Origin: Planktothricoides raciborskii GIHE-MW2
GTDB lineage: Bacteria > Cyanobacteriota > Cyanobacteriia > Cyanobacteriales > Laspinemataceae
DNA: 64,000 nt
NCBI RefSeq assembly: GCF_040564635.1
Contig: NZ_CP159837.1
Span: 99,801 to 163,800, forward strand
Direction: 5' to 3'
Below are positions 777 through 50,815 of this stretch, one piece after another. The translations under genes and the position numbers were made by a program. The notes below the pieces were generated by a model. That model had not been told where the DNA came from. It worked only from the letters and a program-made list of their open reading frames with translations, and ran no database searches. Numbering within the stretch: position 1 is the first letter of the stretch; every line of letters starts with the position of its first letter.

Positions 777-975
777 TTGTTCTGCGATCGCCCAAAAAAT
801 CTCCTCATCTTTTCCGCAGCGAGGGGCGCTTGGACGTAGCGCCCCTACATAATCTGTTGATTTGCTTCTTTGGGCGCAATGCTTGCGCTCCTAGATAAGT
901 TATATTAATCTAAAAAATATTACCAATTTCAAAATAATCCAGAGTCGGTTTTAACCGACTTGCGCTATTAGCCGG

Positions 976-1222
976 GGGTTTTAACCCCTGGGGATTTATC
1001 TACCCCCGCAATTAACCGACGATTGCGGGGATTAAAATCCCCGTAGGGGTCAACGGCCGTTGACCCCTACAGTCGGTTAAAGGGGTTTTAACCCCCGGGG
1101 ATTTATGTACCCCCGCAATTAACCGACGATTGCGGGGATTAAAATCCCCGTAGGGGTCAACGGCCGTTGACCCCTACAGTCGGTTAAAGGGGTTTTAACC
1201 CCCGGGGATTTATCTACCCCCT
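976..1222. repeat. Tandem ~108-bp stacked-palindrome elements (about 2.3 copies)
   Basis: Each unit holds several perfect hairpins, e.g. GTAGGGGTCAACGGCCGTTGACCCCTAC and CCCCGCAAT..ATTGCGGGG. There are no unique spacers between units. Confidence 0.9.
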
Positions 1223-1242
1223 TTACCGATCTTCATTCTCTG

Positions 1243-3564
1243 CTATTCTGCTTCACCAATTAAAGTAAACGCCGCCCAAAAAGAAGGATTGGGATATTGA
1301 TTTTTCATCGTTAACATCGCCTGTCGTAACGCTTGGGCTTTGTTCGGTGTCGTCTGTAAGTTCTGATAAAATTGTACCATCAATTGAGAGGTTGTTCGAT
1401 CATCTACAGCCCATAACGACATCACTAAACTCGGAACTCCTGCATTCAAAAACGAACGAGATAACCCAATCATCCCATCCCCGGTTAACTGTCCAAGTCC
1501 AGTGTCACAGGCACTTAAAACCACTAATTCTGCATTTAATTTTAAGTCAAAAATTTCATCCGCCGTTAATAATCCATCCTCCGAACCCCCAGGAGTTAAC
1601 GCTACGCCACTATTTAAAGGTTGAATATTATCAACAAATCCGTGAGTAGCAAAATGAATAATTCGAGCAGTTTTCAAGCGTTCAACTACCGTTGATTCTG
1701 TTGCATTGGCTCCAATTAAAGCCGAAGTATTGAACATTTTAGCAATCTCAATCGCTTCTTTTTCAGCATAGTGAAGGGGGGCTAACGGTTTAGGTTCTTC
1801 CCCTGGACTCGGTGCAAGTTTCGGCATTTGCGGATTACCCACAATCACAATATCTTGGGCAGAAGAAGATAAATTTTGCCGTTGTTTGTGAGTCGTTTCT
1901 AACACAGTAATGGCAGGAGACATTACAATTGTATGTTTTTCAATTAAGAATTTTCCTTCTTCATCTACCAAAGCAGCAAAAGGTAGATAAAATAAAGCAT
2001 CTGTGGGAACAAAAATCACTCGTTCATCTGGGTTAGTCGGTAATAAATCTTCAATGGGTTTAATTAACAGTTTATGGAGTTCTTTTAACTCTCGATATTG
2101 ATGCGGATTAATATCGATATTCTGTGCTTCTCTTAGAGCATCAGCTTGGGAATTAAATAGAGGACTGCTTGTCAAATTAGAACGAGTTACATTAGAACTA
2201 GCTGAAGCGTTAATAAAATCACTTTTACAGGCATCATTACCAAAGCAACGCGCTGCGAAAATGAGATGACCTAGAGAGGTGTTTTGTTCTTGCCAAAGAA
2301 GTTTAAGATCGGCTTGTCTAAACTCAACTTCTCCAGTGGGCTTAATTACCCAAATATATAATTCTGATTCTCGGTTTTGTTGTTTACGTGAAAATTCATC
2401 GCCAATCCTAGAATATTGAGCAATTGTTGCATTTTGTTGTCGAGCAATGGCTTGGATTTGGGCTAAAGAAACAACCGGAGAAAAGGGTTCTGAATTGGGG
2501 TTGAATCGTTGAGTTAATAACTCGACTAACGCTCTCCCCCGACCTCGTTCAGAAACTTCTAAAGCTGGCTCAGTTTTATTTTGAGCAATTAAAACTTGTT
2601 GAAGCAGATTATAGGAATTGCGTTGAGTGTCGGAAAGAGATACTTTATCGAGGTCGTCTTGAATTCCTTGTCGCAGAGATTCCTTAACTTCGAGACTAGA
2701 AAACAGATATTTTTCATGTTCAGGAAAATTCTTCAATTTAAACAAAGCAAGACCCAAATTATTGAGAGCACTTCCTTCTATATTGCGATCGCCGATTTCA
2801 CGGGCAATAGTTAAAGACGGTTGATAAAACTCAATTGCTTTTTGATATTGTCCTAAGTTATCGTAAGCATTACCCAAATTACCGAGAGAATTTCCTTCTC
2901 CATTGCGATCGCCGATTTCACGGGCAATAGTTAAAGACTGTTGATAAAACTCAATTGCTTTTTGATATTGTCCTAAGCTATTGTAAGCATTACCCAAACC
3001 TATGAGAGCTTTTCCTTCTCCATTGCGATCGCCGATTTCACGGGCAAGAGTTAAAGACTGTTGATAAAACTCTTCTGCTGCTTTTTGATATTGTTCTAAG
3101 CTATAGTAAGCATTACCCAAATTACCGAGAGAATTTCCTTCTCCATTGCGATCGCCGATTTCACGGGCAAGAGTTAAAGACTGTTGATAAAACTCAATTG
3201 CTTTTTGATATTGTTCTAAGCTATAGTAAGCATTACCCAAATTACCGAGAGAATTTCCTTCGCCATTGCGATCGCCGATTTCACGGGCAATAGTTAAAGA
3301 CTGTTGATAAAACTCAATTGCTTTTTGATATTGTCCTAAGCTATCGTAAACATTACCCAAATTATTGAGAGCAGTTCCTTCTATATTGCGATCGCCGATT
3401 TCACGATAAATGTTTAATGCAGTTTCTAAAGACTGAATTGCGGCTTGGTATTGGCTAGTTGTATATTGTTGTCTTCCCTGCTCTAATAATCGGTCTGCTT
3501 CGGCTTTTCGTTCTGTAACTGTTTGGGCGAATACTCCATTACCCATCTCAAATTTTTTCCCCAA
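1243..3564 (-). CDS. TPR-repeat + CHAT-domain (caspase-like) protein, intact copy A
   Basis: The N-terminal half is built of 40-aa TPR-like repeats (EGNSLGNLGNAY..YQKAIEFYQQSLT..AREIGDRNG). The C-terminal CHAT domain has the His/Cys dyad context IIHFATHG and LVVLSACDTGLG. Confidence 0.85.
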   Translation of the reverse strand: MGKKFEMGNGVFAQTVTERKAEADRLLEQGRQQYTTSQYQAAIQSLETALNIYREIGDRNIEGTALNNLGNVYDSLGQYQKAIEFYQQSLTIAREIGDRNGEGNSLGNLGNAYYSLEQYQKAIEFYQQSLTLAREIGDRNGEGNSLGNLGNAYYSLEQYQKAAEEFYQQSLTLAREIGDRNGEGKALIGLGNAYNSLGQYQKAIEFYQQSLTIAREIGDRNGEGNSLGNLGNAYDNLGQYQKAIEFYQPSLTIAREIGDRNIEGSALNNLGLALFKLKNFPEHEKYLFSSLEVKESLRQGIQDDLDKVSLSDTQRNSYNLLQQVLIAQNKTEPALEVSERGRGRALVELLTQRFNPNSEPFSPVVSLAQIQAIARQQNATIAQYSRIGDEFSRKQQNRESELYIWVIKPTGEVEFRQADLKLLWQEQNTSLGHLIFAARCFGNDACKSDFINASASSNVTRSNLTSSPLFNSQADALREAQNIDINPHQYRELKELHKLLIKPIEDLLPTNPDERVIFVPTDALFYLPFAALVDEEGKFLIEKHTIVMSPAITVLETTHKQRQNLSSSAQDIVIVGNPQMPKLAPSPGEEPKPLAPLHYAEKEAIEIAKMFNTSALIGANATESTVVERLKTARIIHFATHGFVDNIQPLNSGVALTPGGSEDGLLTADEIFDLKLNAELVVLSACDTGLGQLTGDGMIGLSRSFLNAGVPSLVMSLWAVDDRTTSQLMVQFYQNLQTTPNKAQALRQAMLTMKNQYPNPSFWAAFTLIGEAE
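2760..3420. repeat. Five near-identical ~120-bp coding repeats (TPR units) inside the CHAT gene
   Basis: The block ttgcgatcgccgatttcacgggcaa(t/g)agttaaagactgttgataaaactc... recurs with a 120-bp period. Copy B has fewer units. Confidence 0.8.
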
Positions 3565-4239
3565 TAGGAGTGGGGAGGGAATTGTTAGGGTTAAACTTGC
3601 TAATAAAGTGAATAAAGTTGTTAATCCTAGACGCGGGTTAATGGTACTGGGGTAGATACTTCAGGTATTAGTATCAATTTAACCTCGTTTTTGGCGAGCG
3701 GCAAGATTATTAAAAAATTGTTATTAAAGTTATTAAAATTTTACATTTTTTTTACCTATCTGCCAGGGAGGGCGGGTTGCTACCTCTTCGCACTTGCGCC
3801 CTGCCTTCCCTGAAACTTTTGTGAATTGGGCATGGCATCTTATTAATGTATGGCGGTAGTCTCGTGGTATAGGACACTTACCAAGCCAAAAGAACTAATA
3901 CCAATTTCAAAAATTATTGCTACAATTTCGGGGTTAATTGGGGCGCTTGCGCTCCTGCCCATTGCGCGGTGGGCGCTTGGACGTAGCCCCCTACCCACTA
4001 CCAATAACTACAGCGATCGCTTATTTGATTGTCCCGGATGTGGTGGGTTACGGCGGAGGAAGCTAAATATTGAAATGTTTTCCGCCAAATTTTCACCGCC
4101 TAACCCACCCTATTAATAACTGCTATAGCAAAATAAAGATGTCGATCCCCCCAACCCCCTCCCCCCTGCCCGTTCGCGAAGCGTGCCGGAGGCATTTGGC
4201 GGTCAAACGGGGGTGAGGGGCTTTGCACGAATTTTGCAA

Positions 4240-10479: not shown

Positions 10480-10936
10480 GATTCTCCTAGAAATGGCACA
10501 TTAGCCCTTGTGAACTGAGTAAGCATTGCCAGTCAATTCCTTTATTCGAGGATAATCCGCCATTATCCGTATTCTGGTCTAGATTTAATTTTGTTGTTGG
10601 TTGTTGGTTGTTGGGTAGGGATTCTTTGTTGGTTGGGGAACGGGGAACAGTTATCGGGGAACGGGGAAAGTGAAAAGTTAAAAGTGAAAAGTGATGCATT
10701 GAAAAGTCGTAGGGGCTTTCTGGCCATATAGCCTGACGGATTATGCTTCGCAAGGACGCCCGTACAAGTGAAAAGTTAAAAGTGAAAATTCGTAGGGGCT
10801 TTCTGGCCATATAGCCTGACGGATTATGCTTCGCAAGGAAGCCCGTACAAAAGAAGTATCACTATTCACTATCTACTATTGACTATTAATTATTAACTAT
10901 TTATTATTTAATATTCGTTATTTACTATTTATTATT

Positions 10937-11139
10937 CACTATTCCCTGTTCCCTGTTCCCTGTTCCCTGTTCCCTATTCCCTGTTCCCTATTCCCTGTTC
11001 CCTATTCCCTGTTCCCTGTTCCCTGTTCCCTATTCCCTGTTCCCTATTCCCTGTTCCCTATTCCCTGTTCCCTGTTCCCTATTCCCTGTTCCCTATTCCC
11101 TGTTCCCTATTCCCTGTTCCCTGTTCCCTATTCCCTGTT
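10937..11139. repeat. Heptanucleotide array (TTCCCTG/TTCCCTA)n of about 28 copies, STRR-like
   Basis: The array is read directly. The complementary heptamer GGGAACR appears about 300 bp upstream at 10620-10650. A ~62-bp direct duplication at 10670-10860 lies between the two. Confidence 0.9.
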
Positions 11140-28183: not shown

Positions 28184-28357
28184 GATGTTTTAGCCAAGAT
28201 GTTTTAGCCAAGATGTCTTAGCCAAGATGTCTTAGCCAAGATGTCTTAGCCAAGATGTCTTAGCCAAGATGTCTTAGCCAAGATGTCTTAGCCAAGATGT
28301 CTTAGCCAAGATGTTTTAGCCAAGATGTTTTAGCCAAGATGTTTTAGCCAAGATGTT
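28184..28357. repeat. 13-mer tandem repeat (GCCAAGATGTYTTA) x about 13, abutting or overlapping the truncated 3' end of tnpB
   Basis: The repeat is read directly. Confidence 0.9.
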
Positions 28358-29720
28358 GACGGCGATCTTCGAGACAATCGAGGGTAAGGTGCTGGGGATG
28401 TTTGAAGCCAGAGTATTTTAGCTGCTCCACTTGGGGAAACCCCAAGACCGCACAGGCTCCCCAAGTCAGCATACTTCTGACTGTTTTAGACCTAATTTTT
28501 CTTCTTGACTTGGCTACCATAAGGGAAGACTCAAAGCGAGGTAGAAAAATTAATCCATAGTTATTAGTCAGGTAATGGGCTGCTTTTTTATGCACTTCGT
28601 CAATTAAGTTTTGGATCTTTTCTCGAATCCGATTAGCCGCTTTTCTCATGGAACGGCGTCGTTTGGCATTCACTTTAGTCGAGCGACTAATTAAATCATA
28701 TTCGTGTTGACATCATCGAGTAATTCGACCCATGTCGCCGTTGCCAATTTCAATGACTCGATCGCCGTCATACCCAGTCAAAAAAGTTCTGACCCCAGGG
28801 TCTAAGGCAATTATTTTCCTTGAAGATGTATGACTTTTAATTACAGGTTCAGGAAAAACAGCGAACCATTTACCACGCCGATAAGTCAATTGAGTGCCAT
28901 AATCCCATTTATCTGGTATAGGTTCACTTGCCTTAAACTTAAGCGTATTTGTTAACCTGCTATACCATGTTCCTTTGGTGAAATTGTCATCATTGAATTT
29001 GATGGTCTGTCGGGGGTTACGGACACTTCGGAATCGGGCATCACGGCTCGCTTTATAGGCTTGATGTGCGTCAAAGATAGCATTTTGTCTGATATGGCAA
29101 GGCGTTTCTTTAACCCACTGAGGTAAATCCGATTGCATGACCAGATTTCGCAATTTTAGCTTACCAATCCGAGTCGTTGATTGACGCTGCATGGCGATCG
29201 CTTGGTTAAAACAATAACGGCAAGCCGCCCGCCATTTTTTCCAAATTTTTTCCAGTTCAGGACTGGGATAAATCCGGATCTTCTTTGATTGCAGACTTAT
29301 ATTTTGTAAGTCTGTAGAGTTGGCGACTGAAGATGTGAACAATGGCAAGGATGTCCTCAACCAATTCTCGTTCTGGGGATAAACTGTCTTGGTTGAGAAC
29401 CAAGATTTTTGTGCCGTCAAGTTCACACAACCAGGAAATGAGATCAAACCCGAAACGGACAAGTCTGTCTCTGTGGGCAACCACAATAAATCCGACATCG
29501 CCTTGACGGACTCGCTCCAAAATGGCTCTAAGTCCTTTTCTTTTGAAATTAAGACCACTGGCGATATCAGTGACGAGCTCGGCGTTAGGGTAGAGTTCGA
29601 GTAATTTTGCAGCTTGGCGATCGAGGTCTGCTTTTTGTCCACGGCTTGAAACGCGGGCGTAAGCGATAATTGCCCGTTGCGTTCTCTCGTTTGAAATTCC
29701 CGTGTAAGACGCAATATCAT
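28344..29720 (-). pseudogene. tnpB: TnpB (OrfB, RuvC-like) split into two ORFs and lacking the zinc finger and RuvC-III
   Basis: ORF 28713-29720 has the N-terminal region and RuvC-I (IALDPGVRTFLTGYDGD). ORF 28344-28673 has the RuvC-II region (RRKIRSKTVRSMLTW). After that the sequence runs into the 13-mer array. Confidence 0.7.
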
Positions 29721-29844
29721 ATCGCCTCTGCCCTGATGGTGTTCTTATGGCTTGAATCTTGCCGTCTCTTTCCCATCTTCTTAGGGTATGTAAGCATACA
29801 CCAAAGTATTGAGAGGTTTCACTTGGTGATGTATATTTCGGCAT
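29257..29844 (-). CDS. tnpA: IS607-type serine-recombinase transposase TnpA
   Basis: It has an N-terminal HTH plus a resolvase-domain catalytic Ser context YARVSS. Confidence 0.8.
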   Translation of the reverse strand: MPKYTSPSETSQYFGVCLHTLRRWERDGKIQAIRTPSGQRRYDIASYTGISNERTQRAIIAYARVSSRGQKADLDRQAAKLLELYPNAELVTDIASGLNFKRKGLRAILERVRQGDVGFIVVAHRDRLVRFGFDLISWLCELDGTKILVLNQDSLSPERELVEDILAIVHIFSRQLYRLTKYKSAIKEDPDLSQS

Positions 29845-29960
29845 TTAGCTCGCTTGTTGTGTACTCGTCTAGCTTAACGCAATTGTTCAGCTTTGTCAAT
29901 CGTTGTTCAGTGAATTGGCGCGCCAGGAAGAGACTCTATGATTGATCCTGCATCCGGGCT

Positions 29961-30402
29961 TTAGGCGATTGCTGGGGAACCGACGGGCAAGTTTTCTGTC
30001 GAACTTTGTTGCAAGTATTTTTTAACAATTTCCAGAACTTGATGGAGGTCGGGTGGTTTGGATAAAAAGTCCGACGCCCCATTCAATTTAGCTTTGGTTC
30101 GATCCATTAATCCATTTTGGCTGGTTAGAATAATAATCGGCGTGTCCCTAAACAAAGAACTCTGCCGTAAAACAGCTACATACATTATAACCGCTGGTTT
30201 GCGGCATGACCACATCTAGAAAAATCAAATCCGGTTTTTCTTCGGCCAGCTTGGCAAATCCCTGCATTGGGTTATTAATTTTTAGGACTCTAAACCCGGC
30301 GGGTTGCAAAATTTGCTCCAATCTTTCGGCAGTTATCGGGCTATCATCAATACAGGCAATTAAAGGTTTTTTCCTGGGTAGTTTTAAGGCTGAACGCACC
30401 AA
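29961..30402 (-). pseudogene. CheY-like receiver domain split by a frameshift
   Basis: ORF 30148-30402 has PLIACIDDSPITAERLE..DLIFLDVVMP. ORF 29961-30215 has TPIIILTSQNGLMDRTKAKLNGASDFLSKP. Together they make one REC domain in two frames. Confidence 0.6.
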
Positions 30403-30539
30403 TAAGAATTGTTCTATAGGAGAGGGAATATCGGCGGGAGTCGTCAGGGATATTTTACCAGCTTTAATGAAATAATCTAGGGCTGGAGACAGGGTTTAAA
30501 TTTCTGACTAAAGTTGGTTAAACTTACTCGTTTTTTTTG

Positions 30540-31150
30540 CTATCATAAGGTTATGAGTAAGTTTAGTATTTACGAAGCAGCAAAAATTATGCAGAGTATC
30601 ACCATCTACATTAAGACGTTGGGAATCAGAAGGGAAATTAATCCCTGAGCGTAGAGGGTCTGGTCATCGGAGACACTCTATGTCTCAATTACTGGCTGTT
30701 GAATCTCATAGAGCCTATACAATCGGTTATGCACGAGTCAGTAGTCACGACCAGAAACAAGACCTAGAACGTCAAAAGGAAATTATTGAATTGTTCTGCG
30801 CTCAAAATGGCTGGGAGCATGAAATTATCCAAGATTAACAACTTACTTAGCCAAGAATCACGGTGAAGTCAAAATCGAAGACTTAAATGTGTCAGGGATG
30901 CTAAAAAATCACAAGCTGGCTGGTGCTATTGCTGATGGTGGGTTTTATGAGTTTCGTCGTCAGCTTGAGTATAAATGCGAGTGGTATGGGAGCAAATTAA
31001 CGCTGATTGACCCCTGGTATCCCAGTTCACAGATATGTTGCAATTGCGGACACCGACAAAAAATGCCACTAGATCAAAGACAGTATGATTGTCCGAACTT
31101 TCACATCTCACTCTTATCGTGACTTAAATGCGGCAATTAAATTAATTTAG
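30540..31150 (+). mobile_element. Internally deleted second IS607-family copy (TnpA N-terminus joined to TnpB C-terminus), opposite strand
   Basis: 30540-30838 encodes MSKFSIYEAAKIM... then, after a frameshift, AYTIGYARVSSHDQKQDLERQKEIIELF. 30840-31150 encodes the TnpB C-terminus: KIEDLNVSGMLKNHKLAGAIADGGFYEF...CCNCGH...DCPN, another frameshift, then RDLNAAIKLI. Confidence 0.7.
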
Positions 31151-31194
31151 AAAACGCGGATAGTTCAGCCGTGTAAGCAAGCGTGATGGAAAGG

Positions 31195-31315
31195 CATCAG
31201 TATAGACACCGGACAAAGCCCAAACGTTACGACAAGCGATGTTAACGATGAAAAATCAAAATCCCAATCCTTATTTTTGGGCGGCATTTGCTTTAATGGG
31301 TCAAGCAGAATAATA
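31195..31315 (+). pseudogene. 3' fragment of a CHAT-domain gene (C-terminal 32 codons)
   Basis: It translates to QAQTLRQAMLTMKNQNPNPYFWAAFALMGQAE*. Compare the copy A C-terminus KAQALRQAMLTMKNQYPNPSFWAAFTLIGEAE*. Confidence 0.75.
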
Positions 31316-34030
31316 TCTCCCCAATCCCAGGTAGGTTTTCTTTTACTACTATCAACATAGAGGTAGCAACCCGCCCTCCCTGGCAGATAGGTAAAAAAAA
31401 TGTAAAATTTTAATAAATTTAATAACAATTTTTTAATAATATTGCCGCTCGCCAAAAACGAGGTTAAATTGATACTAATACCTGAAGTATCTACCCCAGT
31501 ACCATGAACCCACGTCTAGGATTAATCGCTTTATTCACTTTATTAACCAGTTTAACCCTAACAATTCCCTCTCCACTCCTATTGGGGAAAAAATTTGAGA
31601 TGGGTAATGGAGTATTCGCCCAAACAGTTACAGAACGAAAAGCCGAAGCAGACCGATTATTAAATCAGGGAAGACAACAATATACAACTAGCCAATACCA
31701 AGCCGCAATTCAGTCTTTAGAAACTGCATTAAACATTTTCCGTGAAATCGGCGATCGCAATGAAGAAGGAAATGCTCTCATAGGTTTGGGTAATGCTTAC
31801 AATAGCTTAGGACAATATCAAAAAGCAGCAGAAGAGTTTTATCAACAGTCTTTAACTATTAAACGTGAAATCGGCGATCGCAATGGAGAAGGAAATGCTC
31901 TCATAGGTTTGGGTCTTGCTTACAGTGACTTAGGACAATATCAAAAAGCAATTGAGTTTTATCAACAGTCTTTAACCATTGCCCGTGAAATCGGCGATCG
32001 CAATGGAGAAGGAACTGCTCTCTATAATTTGGGTCTTGCTTTGTTTAAATTGAAGAATTTTCCTGAACATGAAAAATATCTGTTTTCTAGTCTCGAAGTT
32101 AAGGAATCTCTGCGACAAGGAATTCAAGACGACCTCGATAAAGTATCTCTTTCCGACACTCAACGCAATTCCTATAATCTGCTTCAACAAGTTTTAATTG
32201 CTCAAAATAAAACTGAGCCAGCTTTAGAAGTTTCTGAACGAGGTCGGGGGAGAGCGTTAGTCTAGTTATTAACTCAACGATTCAACCCCAATTCAGAACC
32301 CTTTTCTCCGGTTGTTTCTTTAGCCCAACTCTAAGCAATTGCTCGACAACAAAATGCAACAATTGTTCAATATTCTAGGATTTCCGATGAATTTTCACGT
32401 AAACAACAAAACCTAGAATCAGAATTATATATTTGGGTAATTAAGCCCACAGGAGAAGTTGAGTTTAGACAAGCCGATCTTAAACCCCTTTGGCAAGAAC
32501 AAAACACCTCTCTAGGTCATCTCATTTTCGCAGCGCGTTGCTTTGGTAATGATGCCTGTAGAAGTGATTTTATTACCGCTTCACCTAGTTCTAATGTAAC
32601 TCGTTCTAATTTGACAAGCAGTCCTCTATTTAATTCCCAAGCTTATGCTCTAAGAGAAGCACAGAATATCGATATTAATCCGCATCAATATCGAGAGTTA
32701 AAAAAACTCCATAAACTGTTAATTAAACCCATTGAAGATTTATTACCGACTAACCCAGATGAACGAGTGATTTTTGTTCCCACAGATGCTTTATTTTATC
32801 TACCTTTTGCTGCTTTGGTAGATGAAGAAGGAAAATTCTTAATTGAAAAACATACAATTTTAATGTCTCCTGCCATTACTGTGTTAGAAACAAGTCACAA
32901 AAAACGGCAAAATTTATCTTCTTCTGCCCAAGATATTGTGATTGTGGGTAATCCGCAAATGCCGAAACTTGCACCGAGTCCAGGGGAAGAACCTAAACCG
33001 TTAGCCCCCCTTCACTATGCTGAAAAAGAAGCGATTGAGATTGCTAAAATGTTCAATACTTCGGCTTTAATTGGAGCCAATGCAACAGAATCAACGGTAG
33101 TTGAACGCTTGAAAACTGCTCGAATTATTCATTTTGCTACTCACGGATTTGTTGATAATATTCAACCTTTAAATAGTGGCGTAGCGTTAACTCCTGGGGG
33201 TTCGGAGGATGGATTATTAACGGCGGATGAAATTTTTGACTTAAAATTAAATGCAGAATTAGTGGTTTTAAGTGCCTGTGACACTGGACTTGGACAGTTA
33301 ACCGGGGATGGGATGATTGGGTTATCTCGTTCGTTTTTGAATGCAGGAGTTCCGAGTTTAGTGATGTCGTTATGGGCTGTAGATGATCGAACAACCTCTC
33401 AATTGATGGTACAATTTTATCAGAACTTACAGACGACACCCAACAAAGCCCAAGCGTTACGACAAGCGATGTTAACGATGAAAAATCAATATCCTGATCC
33501 TTATTATTGGGCGGCGTTTACTTTAATAGGTGAAGCAGAATAGCAGAGAATGAAGATCGGTAAAGGGGGTAGATAAATCCCCGGGGGTTAAAACCCCTTT
33601 AACCGACTGTAGGGGTCAACGGCCGTTGACCCCTACGGGGATTTTAATCCCCGCAATCGTCGGTTAATTGCGGGGGTACATAAATCCCCGGGGGTTAAAA
33701 CCCCTTTAACCGACTGTAGGGGTCAACGGCCGTTGACCCCTACGGGGATTTTAATCCCCGCAATCGTCGGTTAATTGCGGGGGTACATAAATCCCCGGGG
33801 GTTAAAACCCCTTTAACCGCCTGTAGGGGTCAACGGCCGTTGACCCCTACGGGGATTTTAATCCCCGCAATCGTCGGTTAATTGCGGGGGTACATAAATC
33901 CCCGGGGGTTAAAACCCCTTTAACCGCCTGTAGGGGTCAACGGCCGTTGACCCCTACGGGGATTTTAATCCCCGCAATCGTCGGTTAATTGCGGGGGTAC
34001 ATAAATCCCCGGGGGTTAAAACCCCCGGCT
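31312..34030. repeat. Right arm of the inverted duplication (promoter region, CHAT-TPR copy B, palindromic tandem units)
   Basis: See the left arm. Copy B has about 4.5 of the 108-bp palindromic units versus about 2.3 on the left, and fewer TPR units. Confidence 0.85.
31504..33543 (+). pseudogene. TPR+CHAT protein copy B, interrupted by two in-frame stop codons
   Basis: ORFs 31504-32265 and 32611-33543 are collinear with copy A. In the same frame, ALV*LLTQ and AQL*AIARQ replace ALVELLTQ and AQIQAIARQ. Confidence 0.75.
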
Positions 34031-34432
34031 AATAGCGCAAGTCGGTTAAAACCGACTCTGGATTATTTTGAAATTGGTAATATTATTTACAAAAATTCAT
34101 ACAACAGTAGGGGAGCAATGCTTGCGCCCAAATAGACCAGTACATAAATCGCCGGGGGTTAAAACCCCCGGCTAATAGCGCAAGTCGGTTAAAACCGACT
34201 CTGGATTATTTTGAAATTGGTAATATTATTTACAAAAATTCATACAACAGTAGGGGAGCAATGCTTGCGCCCAAATAGACCTGGGGTTAAAACCCCCGGC
34301 TAATAGCGCAAGTCGGTTAAAACCGACTCTGGATTATTTTGAAATTGGTAATATTTTTGAAATTGGTAATATTATTTACAAAAATTCATACAACAGTAGG
34401 GGAGCAATGCTTGCGCCCAAATAGACCTGGGA
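34008..34432. repeat. Three tandem ~125-bp units; a single inverted copy is at 835-975
   Basis: The unit ggctaatagcgcaagtcggttaaaaccgactctggattattttgaaattggtaatattatttacaaaaattcatacaacagtaggggagcaatgcttgcgcccaaatagacc occurs three times. Confidence 0.85.
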
Positions 34433-34462
34433 ATTGTATAGTTTCTAAAATTGGTATTAATT

Positions 34463-39834: not shown

Positions 39835-41805
39835 ATGATAATTTATTTTTGTTTTGGTGTTATGGTTGGTGTACATTGGTTGGTAAACATGGTTGGTAAA
39901 CTTTGCCCTCTAAAATTTTGCACATTTGGCGCGTTCGCGATAGCGGTGCGGAGCGCGATCGCGATAGGAATTTTTTTCAGAATTATTTGTCTGGGTAGGC
40001 GAGAGTTTTGGTACGATGAAGTGCTATCTTTACTTTTGAGTAATGGCCAAAAAATTGCCTACCAAACCCCAGGAGATTTGCCGGTAAAATTGGCAGACTA
40101 TTCTGCTTTGTTAAGCTTACCTCGTACCTCTGGGGTGAGCGACTTTCTGACTAATTTGGTGAATTTACTCAAAGGAATTGCCGGAGGTGAACCTCATCCC
40201 CCACTATTTTATCTGAGTCAACATTTTTGGCTGTATCTGTTTGGCAATAGCGAGGCAGGAATGCGGAGTTTGGGGGTGGTTCTCAGTATTGCCGCGATCG
40301 CTGCTGCCTATTTTTTGGGCAAACTACTTTTGGGACATCGTGGCGGACTTTTACTCGCCGCTTTATTGGCCATAAATCCATTTTATCTGTTTCATTCCCT
40401 AAATTTGCGAATGTATGGCCCCCTAGTTCTTTGGGTGACATTGACTACCTTATCTCTGCTACAACTGATTCGCCTAGAAATAAATGCCCCAGAAATAAAT
40501 TCCCCAGAAATAAATTCCCCAGAAATAAATTCCCCAGAAATAAATTCCCCAGAAATAAATTCCCCAGAAATAAATTCCCCAGAAATAAATGCCCTAGAAA
40601 TTAATTCATCTAAACTCCTGTGGACATTATTACTAATCGGTTCCGTAACTGCGGGTTGTCTCACTTTTTACTTATTTGCCTATTGGATGATTACCCTGGG
40701 AGTCGTGGTACTTTTTTTAGATCGGCAACATTGGTGGCAACATGGATTACGGTTAATCGCCGGAGTTTTACTCACAATTCCTTGGGCACTTTGGGGCACC
40801 TTGCAGCAACTTAGAAATGCTGATTTTGGCCGATTTAATGCCAGTAATGGATTTTTCGCGAGTATGCTGCAACATTTACAAGATTTAGCCAGCACTCTGG
40901 GGATTCATTTACTAATCGGCGATTGGGCTACTAGCCTACCGAATTCTATGCAGGCGATCGCGGGTTTTCTGGTTATGGGATTACTCACCGCAGGGATAAT
41001 CTATGGGTGGCAGAATCCTCATAAACCGGGTTTCTTGAAGAAACCCGGTTTCTCGGAATCATTCATCAAGTCTCCGCGCCGTCTCCTGATATTAGGCTTT
41101 TTATTGAGTCTTTTTCCCCTATTAATAGCCTTAGCAGTGGATATAATCACCGGCAAATTTACCCTAGGCTTTGGGTGGGGCAGAAGCATGATTTTTATTC
41201 TTCCGGGCTGCTTACTATTACTCACTATTTTAATCATGCAATTAATCAGGGTATCAAACAAAATATCCGCTTCTACCCCTGAATCCCCTCAGCCGCGCCC
41301 ATTAAATCCCCGTTGGCCTCAAATATTCGCCGTAATTCTTCTCTTATTATATTTAGGAATTAACGTGGGAGATTTTACCCTTCGACCCCGCTGGATGTTT
41401 CATCAAATTGCCGATATTCTTCAGGGCGAACCGAATAGTCCCACCTTAATTGCCATGAACTCAAAAGCCTGGGGTCATGTCATGCGGTTAGCGTATTATA
41501 TTCCCGCAAACTTGCCGGTCATGCTATTAGCGGAACCCGCCCCAGAATTAGCGATATCCTTAGAAAAAAGCTTAGAAAAAAGCCAGGAAAAAACCTCTAG
41601 TCAATATCAGCGAATTATCTGGATAGATAGTCATACCCCCATTTGGTCAAATCCAACCACAGAAACCGAAAAAGAAGCTATCACAAAAGTTTTAGAATCT
41701 CAATTTCAATTAGAAAAAACTTGGCAAGTTTCTGGCACCATGAATAGTGATGAATTTACGCTCAAACTTTATCATCTATCTGCTCAATTGATAATTAATA
41801 ATTGA
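39835..41805 (+). CDS. GT-C superfamily membrane glycosyltransferase (PMT_2/ArnT-like, GT39/GT83-like); the start codon is uncertain
   Basis: It has more than 10 predicted TM segments. The first-loop motif is REFWYDEVLS. It contains an internal PEINS x8 repeat and an in-frame hairpin element. Met at 39889 (MVGKL..) is a possible alternative start. Confidence 0.65.
   Translation: MIIYFCFGVMVGVHWLVNMVGKLCPLKFCTFGAFAIAVRSAIAIGIFFRIICLGRREFWYDEVLSLLLSNGQKIAYQTPGDLPVKLADYSALLSLPRTSGVSDFLTNLVNLLKGIAGGEPHPPLFYLSQHFWLYLFGNSEAGMRSLGVVLSIAAIAAAYFLGKLLLGHRGGLLLAALLAINPFYLFHSLNLRMYGPLVLWVTLTTLSLLQLIRLEINAPEINSPEINSPEINSPEINSPEINSPEINSPEINALEINSSKLLWTLLLIGSVTAGCLTFYLFAYWMITLGVVVLFLDRQHWWQHGLRLIAGVLLTIPWALWGTLQQLRNADFGRFNASNGFFASMLQHLQDLASTLGIHLLIGDWATSLPNSMQAIAGFLVMGLLTAGIIYGWQNPHKPGFLKKPGFSESFIKSPRRLLILGFLLSLFPLLIALAVDIITGKFTLGFGWGRSMIFILPGCLLLLTILIMQLIRVSNKISASTPESPQPRPLNPRWPQIFAVILLLLYLGINVGDFTLRPRWMFHQIADILQGEPNSPTLIAMNSKAWGHVMRLAYYIPANLPVMLLAEPAPELAISLEKSLEKSQEKTSSQYQRIIWIDSHTPIWSNPTTETEKEAITKVLESQFQLEKTWQVSGTMNSDEFTLKLYHLSAQLIINN
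40478..40606 (+). repeat. In-frame 15-bp tandem repeat x8 inside the CDS, encoding (PEINS)8
   Basis: CCCCAGAAATAAATT x8 translates to APEINSPEINSPEINSPEIN... in the frame of ORF 39835-41805. Confidence 0.9.
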
Positions 41806-50699: not shown

Positions 50700-50815
50700 G
50701 GAGGTATTTTTTGCGGGTATTTTTTGCGGGTATTTTTTGCGGGTATTTTTTGCGGGTATTTTTTGCGGGTATTTTTTGCGGGTATTTTTTGCGGGTATTT
50801 TTTGCGGGTATTTTT
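50700..50815. repeat. 13-mer tandem repeat (GGGTATTTTTTGC) x9
   Basis: The repeat is read directly. Confidence 0.9.

Follow-up and report, generated by a model that had tools for sequence, protein, structure and literature searches.

What kind of element is the tandem, hairpin-rich array that follows two CHAT protease genes in Planktothricoides raciborskii GIHE-MW2? The window considered here is a 64,000-nucleotide stretch of the chromosome (contig NZ_CP159837.1, positions 99,801 to 163,800; coordinates below count from its first letter), and the array occurs in it at two sites, A and B. It is probably a group of REP-like palindromes that has been amplified in tandem and that amounts to a bacterial minisatellite. 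Because it is built around a short palindrome that recurs across many cyanobacterial genomes, it counts as a rather ordinary repeat of bacteria (REP cluster or minisatellite) and not as a new kind of element.

The layout of the arrays is simple. Tandem Repeats Finder gives a period of 107 bp at both sites: array A (975-1221, minus strand) has 2.3 copies with 97% matches, and array B (33565-34025, plus strand) has 4.3 copies of the same unit with 99% matches. Each array is the reverse complement of the other, and both can be followed unit by unit in the sequence itself. A preliminary description of the locus, made from the sequence, had recognized the tandem arrangement and the 2.3 copies at site A correctly, with a unit about one base too long (108 bp); its 4.5 copies at 33557-34028 for site B give way to the values above. 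In the CHAT sense, the unit reads GGGGGTA(G/C)ATAAATCCCC GGGGGTTAAAACCCC TTTAACCG(A/C)CT GTAGGGGTCAACGGCCGTTGACCCCTAC GGGGATTTTAATCCCC GCAATCGTCGGTTAATTGC, that is, a 28-bp REP-like core (GTAGGGGTCAACGGCCGTTGACCCCTAC) and 79 bp of non-REP sequence that holds the other hairpins. Units are contiguous and 97-100% identical. The array is not an assembly artefact, since it is seen in independent assemblies: a separately assembled metagenome contig (L121) spans site A and also has 2.3 copies there, and a Planktothricoides genome assembly (L127) terminates within the site-B array. Other assemblies stop within or beside repeats. A chemotaxis protein encoded in the window is identical in assembly GCA_001276715.1 (contig LIUQ01000068.1) and in several metagenomes; the prefix of that contig accession agrees with LIUQ00000000, which the genome paper on Planktothricoides sp. 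SR001 gives (PMC5460452).

Several familiar classes of element can be set aside. A CRISPR array is defined by unique spacers and accompanying cas genes; there are zero spacers between the 107-bp units, as had been noticed at the outset, and a Pfam scan of 22 ORFs in the window found no Cas family except Cas12f1-like_TNB on a TnpB fragment. An integron attC site is rejected on three counts: the TCAAC/GTTGA of the palindrome does not match RYYYAAC/GTTRRRY, no cassettes separate the units, and there is no integrase among the ORFs scanned. A TnpB guide RNA or insertion sequence end is rejected as well, the nearest TnpB fragment being 2.4 kb away, beyond the gene. Finally, the units are not coding sequence: none contains an ORF of 30 aa or more.

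What the units do contain is dense self-complementarity. The central feature is a perfect 28-bp palindrome, the GTAG-headed REP-like core GTAGGGGTCAACGGCCGTTGACCCCTAC, with a 12-bp stem and a 4-nt loop (predicted at -21.2 kcal/mol as RNA). The copy at 1043-1070 is joined by further copies at 1150-1177, 33609-33636, 33716-33743, 33823-33850 and 33930-33957. These six occurrences in the window compare with 0 expected in shuffles, and the same numbers (6 versus 0) hold for the hairpin CCCCGCAAT...ATTGCGGGG; a GGGGAT...ATCCCC hairpin is also present in every unit, so all three hairpins originally named are indeed there. Each unit has in addition small G/C-clamped hairpins with AT loops (GGGGGTA.ATAAATCCCC and GGGGGTTAAAACCCC) and a 9-bp long-range pair (TTAACCGAC/GTCGGTTAA); in all, the non-REP part holds four short hairpins, built of a G4/C4 stem and an AT-rich loop. 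Adjacent hairpins use common G4/C4 runs, for example CCCCGCAAT takes the CCCC that belongs to the GGGGAT hairpin, and therefore they cannot all form simultaneously. They are partly alternatives to each other, and the preliminary picture of a stack of hairpins keeps its self-complementarity and loses its full stack. The predicted RNA fold is nevertheless far better than that of shuffled sequence, which was one of the checks first proposed: a single unit reaches -61.4 kcal/mol (z = -6.7), and for the site-A region as a whole the value is -185 kcal/mol (z = -12).

The arrays have related repeats as neighbors. A second tandem array, with a 143-bp unit in about 2.6-3 copies, adjoins array B (33997-34428, plus strand; identified by Tandem Repeats Finder, membership of the repeat family and sequence), and a single 143-bp unit at site A, found as a repeat pair, overlaps the last partial 107-bp unit (904-1003, minus strand). 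The two kinds of unit have the module GTACATAAATCCCCGGGGGTTAAAACCCC in common. Within the 143-bp array lie the hairpins CCGGGGGTTAAAACCCCCGG and AGTCGGTTAAAACCGACT as well as a degenerate hairpin of the GTAG type (GTAGGGGAGCAATGCTTGCGCCC); the array also has the end motif GAAATTGGTAAT. A GTAG-headed hairpin, GTAGGGGCGCTACGTCCAAGCGCCCC, lies at 820-848 (minus strand), in the same intergenic region as array A, and has a relative near 3994; GTAG-headed hairpins of the types GTAGGGGGCTACGTCCAAGCGCCC and GTAGGGGCGCTACGTCCAAGCGCCCC are found at 3890-3995, 820-848 and 34396-34455. The end motif (TACCAATTTCAAAA / GAAATTGGTAAT / AAATTGGTATTA) flanks the arrays and occurs again at 3899 and near 34440. 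The GTAG hairpins together with the recurring end motif (TACCAATTTCAAAA / AAATTGGTATTA) suggest a local REP/MITE-like mosaic family around the CHAT paralogues.

The position of the arrays is best understood from the genes beside them. Site A sits between two convergent genes, one encoding an SLT-domain protein (end at 776) and the other TPR-CHAT copy A (end at 1243). Copy A is an intact ORF of 773 aa (1243-3564, minus strand) that matches TPR families and CHAT (PF12770, E = 1e-77). Copy B (31504-33543, plus strand) also matches CHAT (E = 1e-77 and 2e-79 for the two copies), and judging from Pfam and the alignment of the duplicated arms it is probably a pseudogene: two stops interrupt its reading frame (GAG to TAG at 32263, and codon 276), and 360 bp of copy A, corresponding to three TPR units, are missing from it. 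The distance from stop codon to array is 21 nt at both sites (ORF ends 1243 and 33543; array edges 1221 and 33565), and the first palindrome lies 66 nt past the CHAT stop; the initial observation that the arrays directly follow the genes, placed to be transcribed as a 3′ UTR, is thus borne out. The two sites are arms of one inverted segmental duplication of about 2.9 kb and 95-97% identity. Arm 1 (904-3787) and arm 2 (31359-34096) pair over 1985 nt at 97% and over 469 nt at 95%, with divergence that is patchy along their length, and each holds the gene and its array. Since both arrays lie within a single duplication, the sites are not independent, and the association with CHAT genes does not count as independent evidence.

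Comparison of the individual units gives the history of the arrays. Unit A1 is identical to B1 and A2 to B2, including a unit-specific G/C variant, and B3 is identical to B4, the two having a private A-to-C change in common. It follows that the ancestral array had about 2.3 copies and that copy B gained two units after the duplication. The variants and the arms together establish an order of events: tandem duplication, then segmental duplication, then expansion at copy B. A 107-bp non-coding segment was first duplicated head-to-tail 3′ of a TPR-CHAT gene; gene and array were next copied jointly in the inverted duplication of about 2.9 kb; and copy B later gained its two units while its gene decayed to a pseudogene. 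Slippage during replication, or unequal recombination among units that are identical and prone to form hairpins, could account for the changes in copy number; transposition of the unit would not be required.

The same arms bear on a second reading of the locus, namely that selection maintains the array as a cis-regulatory 3′ UTR (multi-hairpin terminator or mRNA-stability module) dedicated to the CHAT protease gene, with a copy number that tunes expression. The start of the array 21 nt after the stop in both copies and the very stable predicted fold are what such a module would look like. A consensus terminator scan of the CHAT sense strand picks out one site in each unit, the 28-mer plus GGGGAUUUUAAU, with a short U-tract of 4 consecutive U. 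Moreover, the arms differ at 7 positions in the last 138 nt of the gene and at none in the two shared units, so the units are identical while the adjoining gene end is not. This could hint at constraint on the array; however, a 538-nt stretch of the gene also has 0 differences and is thus equally identical, and constraint was for that reason rejected as a conclusion. Patchy divergence of this kind fits gene-conversion mosaicism, which explains it equally well, with no clear sign of constraint. The longer array is found 3′ of the pseudogene, which argues against selection for CHAT regulation. Only one substitution falls in a stem, an A-to-C change in the 9-bp long-range pair, and no second change restores the pairing; with copies so nearly identical, covariation offers no test. 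Rfam gave 0 matches over the whole window at gathering thresholds, and its permissive matches fell far under threshold. A CHAT-specific regulatory module is therefore improbable. A more modest terminator or mRNA-stability role is plausible by analogy: enterobacterial REPs have been shown to act as terminators or as barriers to 3′ exonucleases. The first 12-14-bp GC-rich hairpin plus GGGGAUUUUAAU could serve in the same way on transcription from the CHAT side, with the extra units largely neutral.

The regulatory reading also meets the distribution of arrays beside CHAT genes. A third CHAT 3′-end remnant in the window (31205-31312) has no array 3′ of it, and the array is absent at the closest CHAT homologues (Planktothrix, 80-91% identity) and at one more distant homologue; the homologue loci reached were Planktothrix hemA-CHAT-trpA and CHASE2-DUF928-CHAT, with an array at neither. 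As far as these loci go, the array appears not to be a general companion of CHAT genes, and the early statement that it lies 3′ of each of them holds for copies A and B, fails for the remnant, and rests on two sites that are arms of one duplication. An exact-protein look-up returned no record for the CHAT ORF or for a repeat-derived 48-aa ORF. Other features of the homologues were observed along the way. The closest are proteins of Planktothrix agardhii and P. rubescens (80-91% identity; L171-L175), and Planktothrix CHAT homologues range from 662 to 902 aa in length through TPR copy number. Several Planktothrix strains have an 89-bp tandem duplication across the CHAT stop codon, and the hemA-CHAT-trpA locus has a gene for a 117-aa Y1 transposase about 4.5 kb upstream.

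Tandem repeats are not confined to the CHAT genes. An unrelated tandem hairpin array at 63202-63453 consists of a 63-bp unit in 4 copies with 100% identity, and its hairpin has a stem of about 20 bp (predicted -38 kcal/mol, z = -5.4). The array follows GGTAGGGG and directly adjoins the stop (63453) of a minus-strand, Rnf-like ORF. It is also located upstream of the part of a DUF2330 ORF that Pfam matches, and the listed extent of that ORF (61833-63422) overlaps the array. There are also many short intergenic tandem arrays with 7-, 13-, 14- and 15-bp units in up to 29 copies, and an 83-bp x 2 repeat with GTAGGGG heads (short arrays including this repeat: 10933-11139, 28184-28356, 40476-40607, 50703-50815 and 10700-10855). 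The occurrence of other tandem hairpin arrays after stop codons in the window suggests a genome-wide tendency and not a device specific to CHAT.

It had further been proposed that the palindromic arrays are a recombination hotspot driving the rearrangements of the region, which would include the inverted duplication. Two observations point in this direction. First, the duplication has its outer edge (904 / 34096) within the cluster of REP and 143-bp repeats. Second, other Planktothricoides-like assemblies (L123 1-10000; L164 3800-12246) have window genes joined to different neighbors. However, the arrays lie inside the duplicated segment and not at both of its ends. The inner edge (3787 / 31359) is without an array; next to it are a TnpB fragment, a pair made up of an IS607-like serine recombinase and TnpB, and the CHAT remnant. 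In the order of the window, this neighborhood contains a TnpB N-terminus (28713-29720), the IS607-like serine recombinase (29257-29844; single-copy in the exact-protein look-up), a response regulator split in two (29961-30402) and a TnpB C-terminal fragment (30889-31122); the insertion sequence debris beside the inner edge of copy B spans 28713-31455 altogether. The strain-specific junctions, for their part, are at MCP paralogues and at TnpB and not at the arrays, indicating strain-level rearrangements in the chemotaxis-gene region. The IS607/TnpB remnants are more obvious candidates for rearrangement than the arrays, though the outer edge does fall in a repeat cluster. It is decidedly improbable that the arrays were behind these rearrangements.

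The palindrome at the heart of the preferred reading, a REP cluster amplified in tandem, occurs widely outside the array. A scan of genome contigs found the 22-bp core of GTAGGGGTCAACGGCCGTTGACCCCTAC at 120 or more stretches in other cyanobacteria, including Crocosphaera, Cyanothece, Oscillatoria sp. SIO1A7, Zarconia, Pleurocapsa, Roseofilum and others; there are at least 21 sites across the 6.1-Mb chromosome of Crocosphaera watsonii WH 8501 and at least 24 in Oscillatoria SIO1A7. The features of these sites, among the matches listed, are those of a dispersed extragenic repeat: GTA stands on the left in 105 of 122 and TAC on the right in 99 of 122, only 1-3 of the 122 lie inside long ORFs, 55 sites have tandem neighboring genes, 28 have convergent and 15 divergent ones, and the median distance from palindrome to the nearest gene 3′ end is 43 nt. 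Variants of the palindrome stay palindromic through compensatory changes, and the flanks vary by site. The exact 28-mer is common to non-coding DNA of several cyanobacterial orders. In Crocosphaera it forms the center of MITE-like elements, long palindromes of about 110 bp with ends AATACCAATTTC/GAAATTGGTATT (reported example sites: L030 2098 and L073 1786), and in Oscillatoria SIO1A7 it is the center of different elements of the same size and kind with ends GGACTTACGC/GCGTAAGTCC (L025 921 and L084 2292). To judge by these sequences, the 28-bp palindrome belongs to a pan-cyanobacterial family of dispersed, presumably mobile palindromes. In Planktothricoides, it was seen only in the two arrays within the approximately 90 kb examined. 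A scan of viral contigs with the 22-mer core gave 1 match, and a text search of the literature for the sequence gave none. Neither ORF clustering nor tblastn with a Planktothrix Y1 query turned up a RAYT/Y1 transposase gene in the window or at 120 palindrome loci. The palindrome may have reached this locus through whatever mobilizes the REP family, by analogy with GTAG REPs elsewhere most likely a RAYT-type HUH tyrosine transposase.

Mobility of the palindrome leaves the question of the unit. In a third reading, the unit of 107 bp is a mobile element in its own right, non-autonomous and MITE- or REPIN-like, which has spread in the Planktothricoides genome and builds the arrays by inserting beside its own copies. 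The place of the exact 28-mer at the center of the Crocosphaera and Oscillatoria SIO1A7 elements speaks for such a unit, as do the similar end motif that flanks the arrays and recurs nearby, and the tendency of short-read assemblies to break at the repeats. The remainder of the unit behaves differently, however. The 107-bp unit as a whole was not found beyond the two sites in the 64-kb window, and it was absent from about 25 kb of extra Planktothricoides DNA, the 120 palindrome loci, PLSDB plasmids, phage records and viral contigs. Nor did the four non-REP hairpins turn up elsewhere in the window, in the same 25 kb or so of further Planktothricoides DNA, or in 912 kb of 28-mer loci. A blastn search of the array sequence against plasmids and phages found no match, and a scan of viral contigs with the 19-mer GCAATCGTCGGTTAATTGC gave 0 matches. 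(A metagenome scan with CCCCGGGGGTTAAAACCCC returned 28 unrelated stretches and did not return a known JGI carrier contig, and is thus uninformative on dispersal.) The edges of the unit have neither terminal inverted repeats nor a target-site duplication, one segmental duplication explains both sites, and the unit variants fit local duplication. Independent mobility of the whole unit is accordingly unlikely; of the MITE-like mobile palindrome first suggested, what survives is the 28-bp part, a member of a dispersed and presumably mobile family.

A separate observation came from the metagenome data. Contigs of an unrelated organism (L134, L140, L142, L153 and L157) carry dense arrays, with 72-bp spacing and others, of a repeat that includes GGATTCCGGGACCCCGGGGGTTAAAACCCCCACCCCGGAATGACA; these arrays surfaced only via a 19-mer shared with the scan query.

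The tandemly amplified REP cluster matters mainly for annotation and assembly. The arrays break short-read Planktothricoides assemblies, several public contigs ending in them, and an annotator could take them for CRISPR-like or regulatory elements. As a VNTR marker, they can also serve for strain typing in a bloom-forming, odor-producing cyanobacterium. The more interesting side result is the exact 28-bp palindrome that is common to several orders and forms the center of different MITE-like elements; if a dedicated enzyme maintains the 28-mer, that system is uncharacterized in cyanobacteria. A bolder version can be imagined, in which a HUH (RAYT-like) system, conserved across cyanobacterial orders and still active, would recognize the GTAG palindrome as its hairpin. 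The 107-bp unit would be a REPIN-like composite that this system inserts beside existing copies, and array length a heritable, rapidly variable setting of transcript 3′-end formation for the genes nearby. This combination would be a very long shot.

How does the cluster compare with known systems? The enterobacterial BIMEs are intergenic mosaics of palindromic units and linkers that follow genes and vary in unit number by site, as here. In E. coli, BIMEs are transcribed as stable hairpins and can block 3′ exonucleases or terminate transcription; they have REPs of alternating orientation together with defined linker motifs, and IHF, gyrase or Pol I binds to them. Unlike BIMEs, the arrays here repeat one 107-bp composite head-to-tail, and because the core is a perfect palindrome, REP orientation is undefined. 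Cyanobacterial MITEs (for example, Nezha) and the 28-mer-centered palindromes of Crocosphaera and Oscillatoria SIO1A7 resemble the unit in size (about 110 bp), in the same 28-bp core, and in a AATACCAATTTC-like end motif near the arrays. They differ from it in three respects: terminal inverted repeats and target duplication, by which MITEs are recognized, are lacking in the 107-bp unit; its internal complementary segments are in crossing and not mirrored order; and no dispersed copies were found in the DNA examined.

REPINs are mobilized by RAYTs, and those of Nostoc punctiforme are included among them (Bertels and Rainey, 2011, PMC3116915). Like the 28-mer, which can be read as two inverted 14-nt GTAG-headed halves, they are symmetric, hairpin-forming REP doublets; unlike it, they are about 70-120 bp long and consist of two REPs and a spacer. 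Closer still are the GTAG-tagged REP families, which occur in cyanobacteria as GTAG-12, -15 and -16 (Di Nocera, De Gregorio and Rocco, 2013, PMC3733652). The likeness rests on the published description of these families and not on their consensus sequences. According to that description, they are short, GC-rich, GTAG-headed palindromes with many dispersed extragenic copies in cyanobacteria, located mostly just 3′ of ORFs between tandem or convergent genes, and they form clusters in which a REP plus flanking DNA is reiterated in tandem (PMC3733652). Much of this is seen here, the many dispersed extragenic copies being those in the other cyanobacteria: the 28-mer falls within the 20-40 bp of a GC-rich stem-loop REP, it lies downstream of ORFs, and it is repeated in tandem with its flanking DNA, as in a REP cluster or the palindrome-linker mosaic of a BIME. 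There are also differences. The tag of a tagged REP is described as unpaired (PMC3733652), whereas GTAG here pairs with CTAC in a perfect 28-bp palindrome and stands at the 5′ end on both strands. In addition, no RAYT gene was found nearby, and 79 of the 107 bp of the unit are non-REP.

The tandem organization, finally, is that of bacterial minisatellites (VNTRs): head-to-tail units of about 100 bp are 97-100% identical, the paralogous copies differ in their number of units, and the way variants are distributed among the units points to local duplication. The 107-bp unit is unlike that of a typical minisatellite in being unusually rich in nested palindromes and in carrying a member of a dispersed repeat family.
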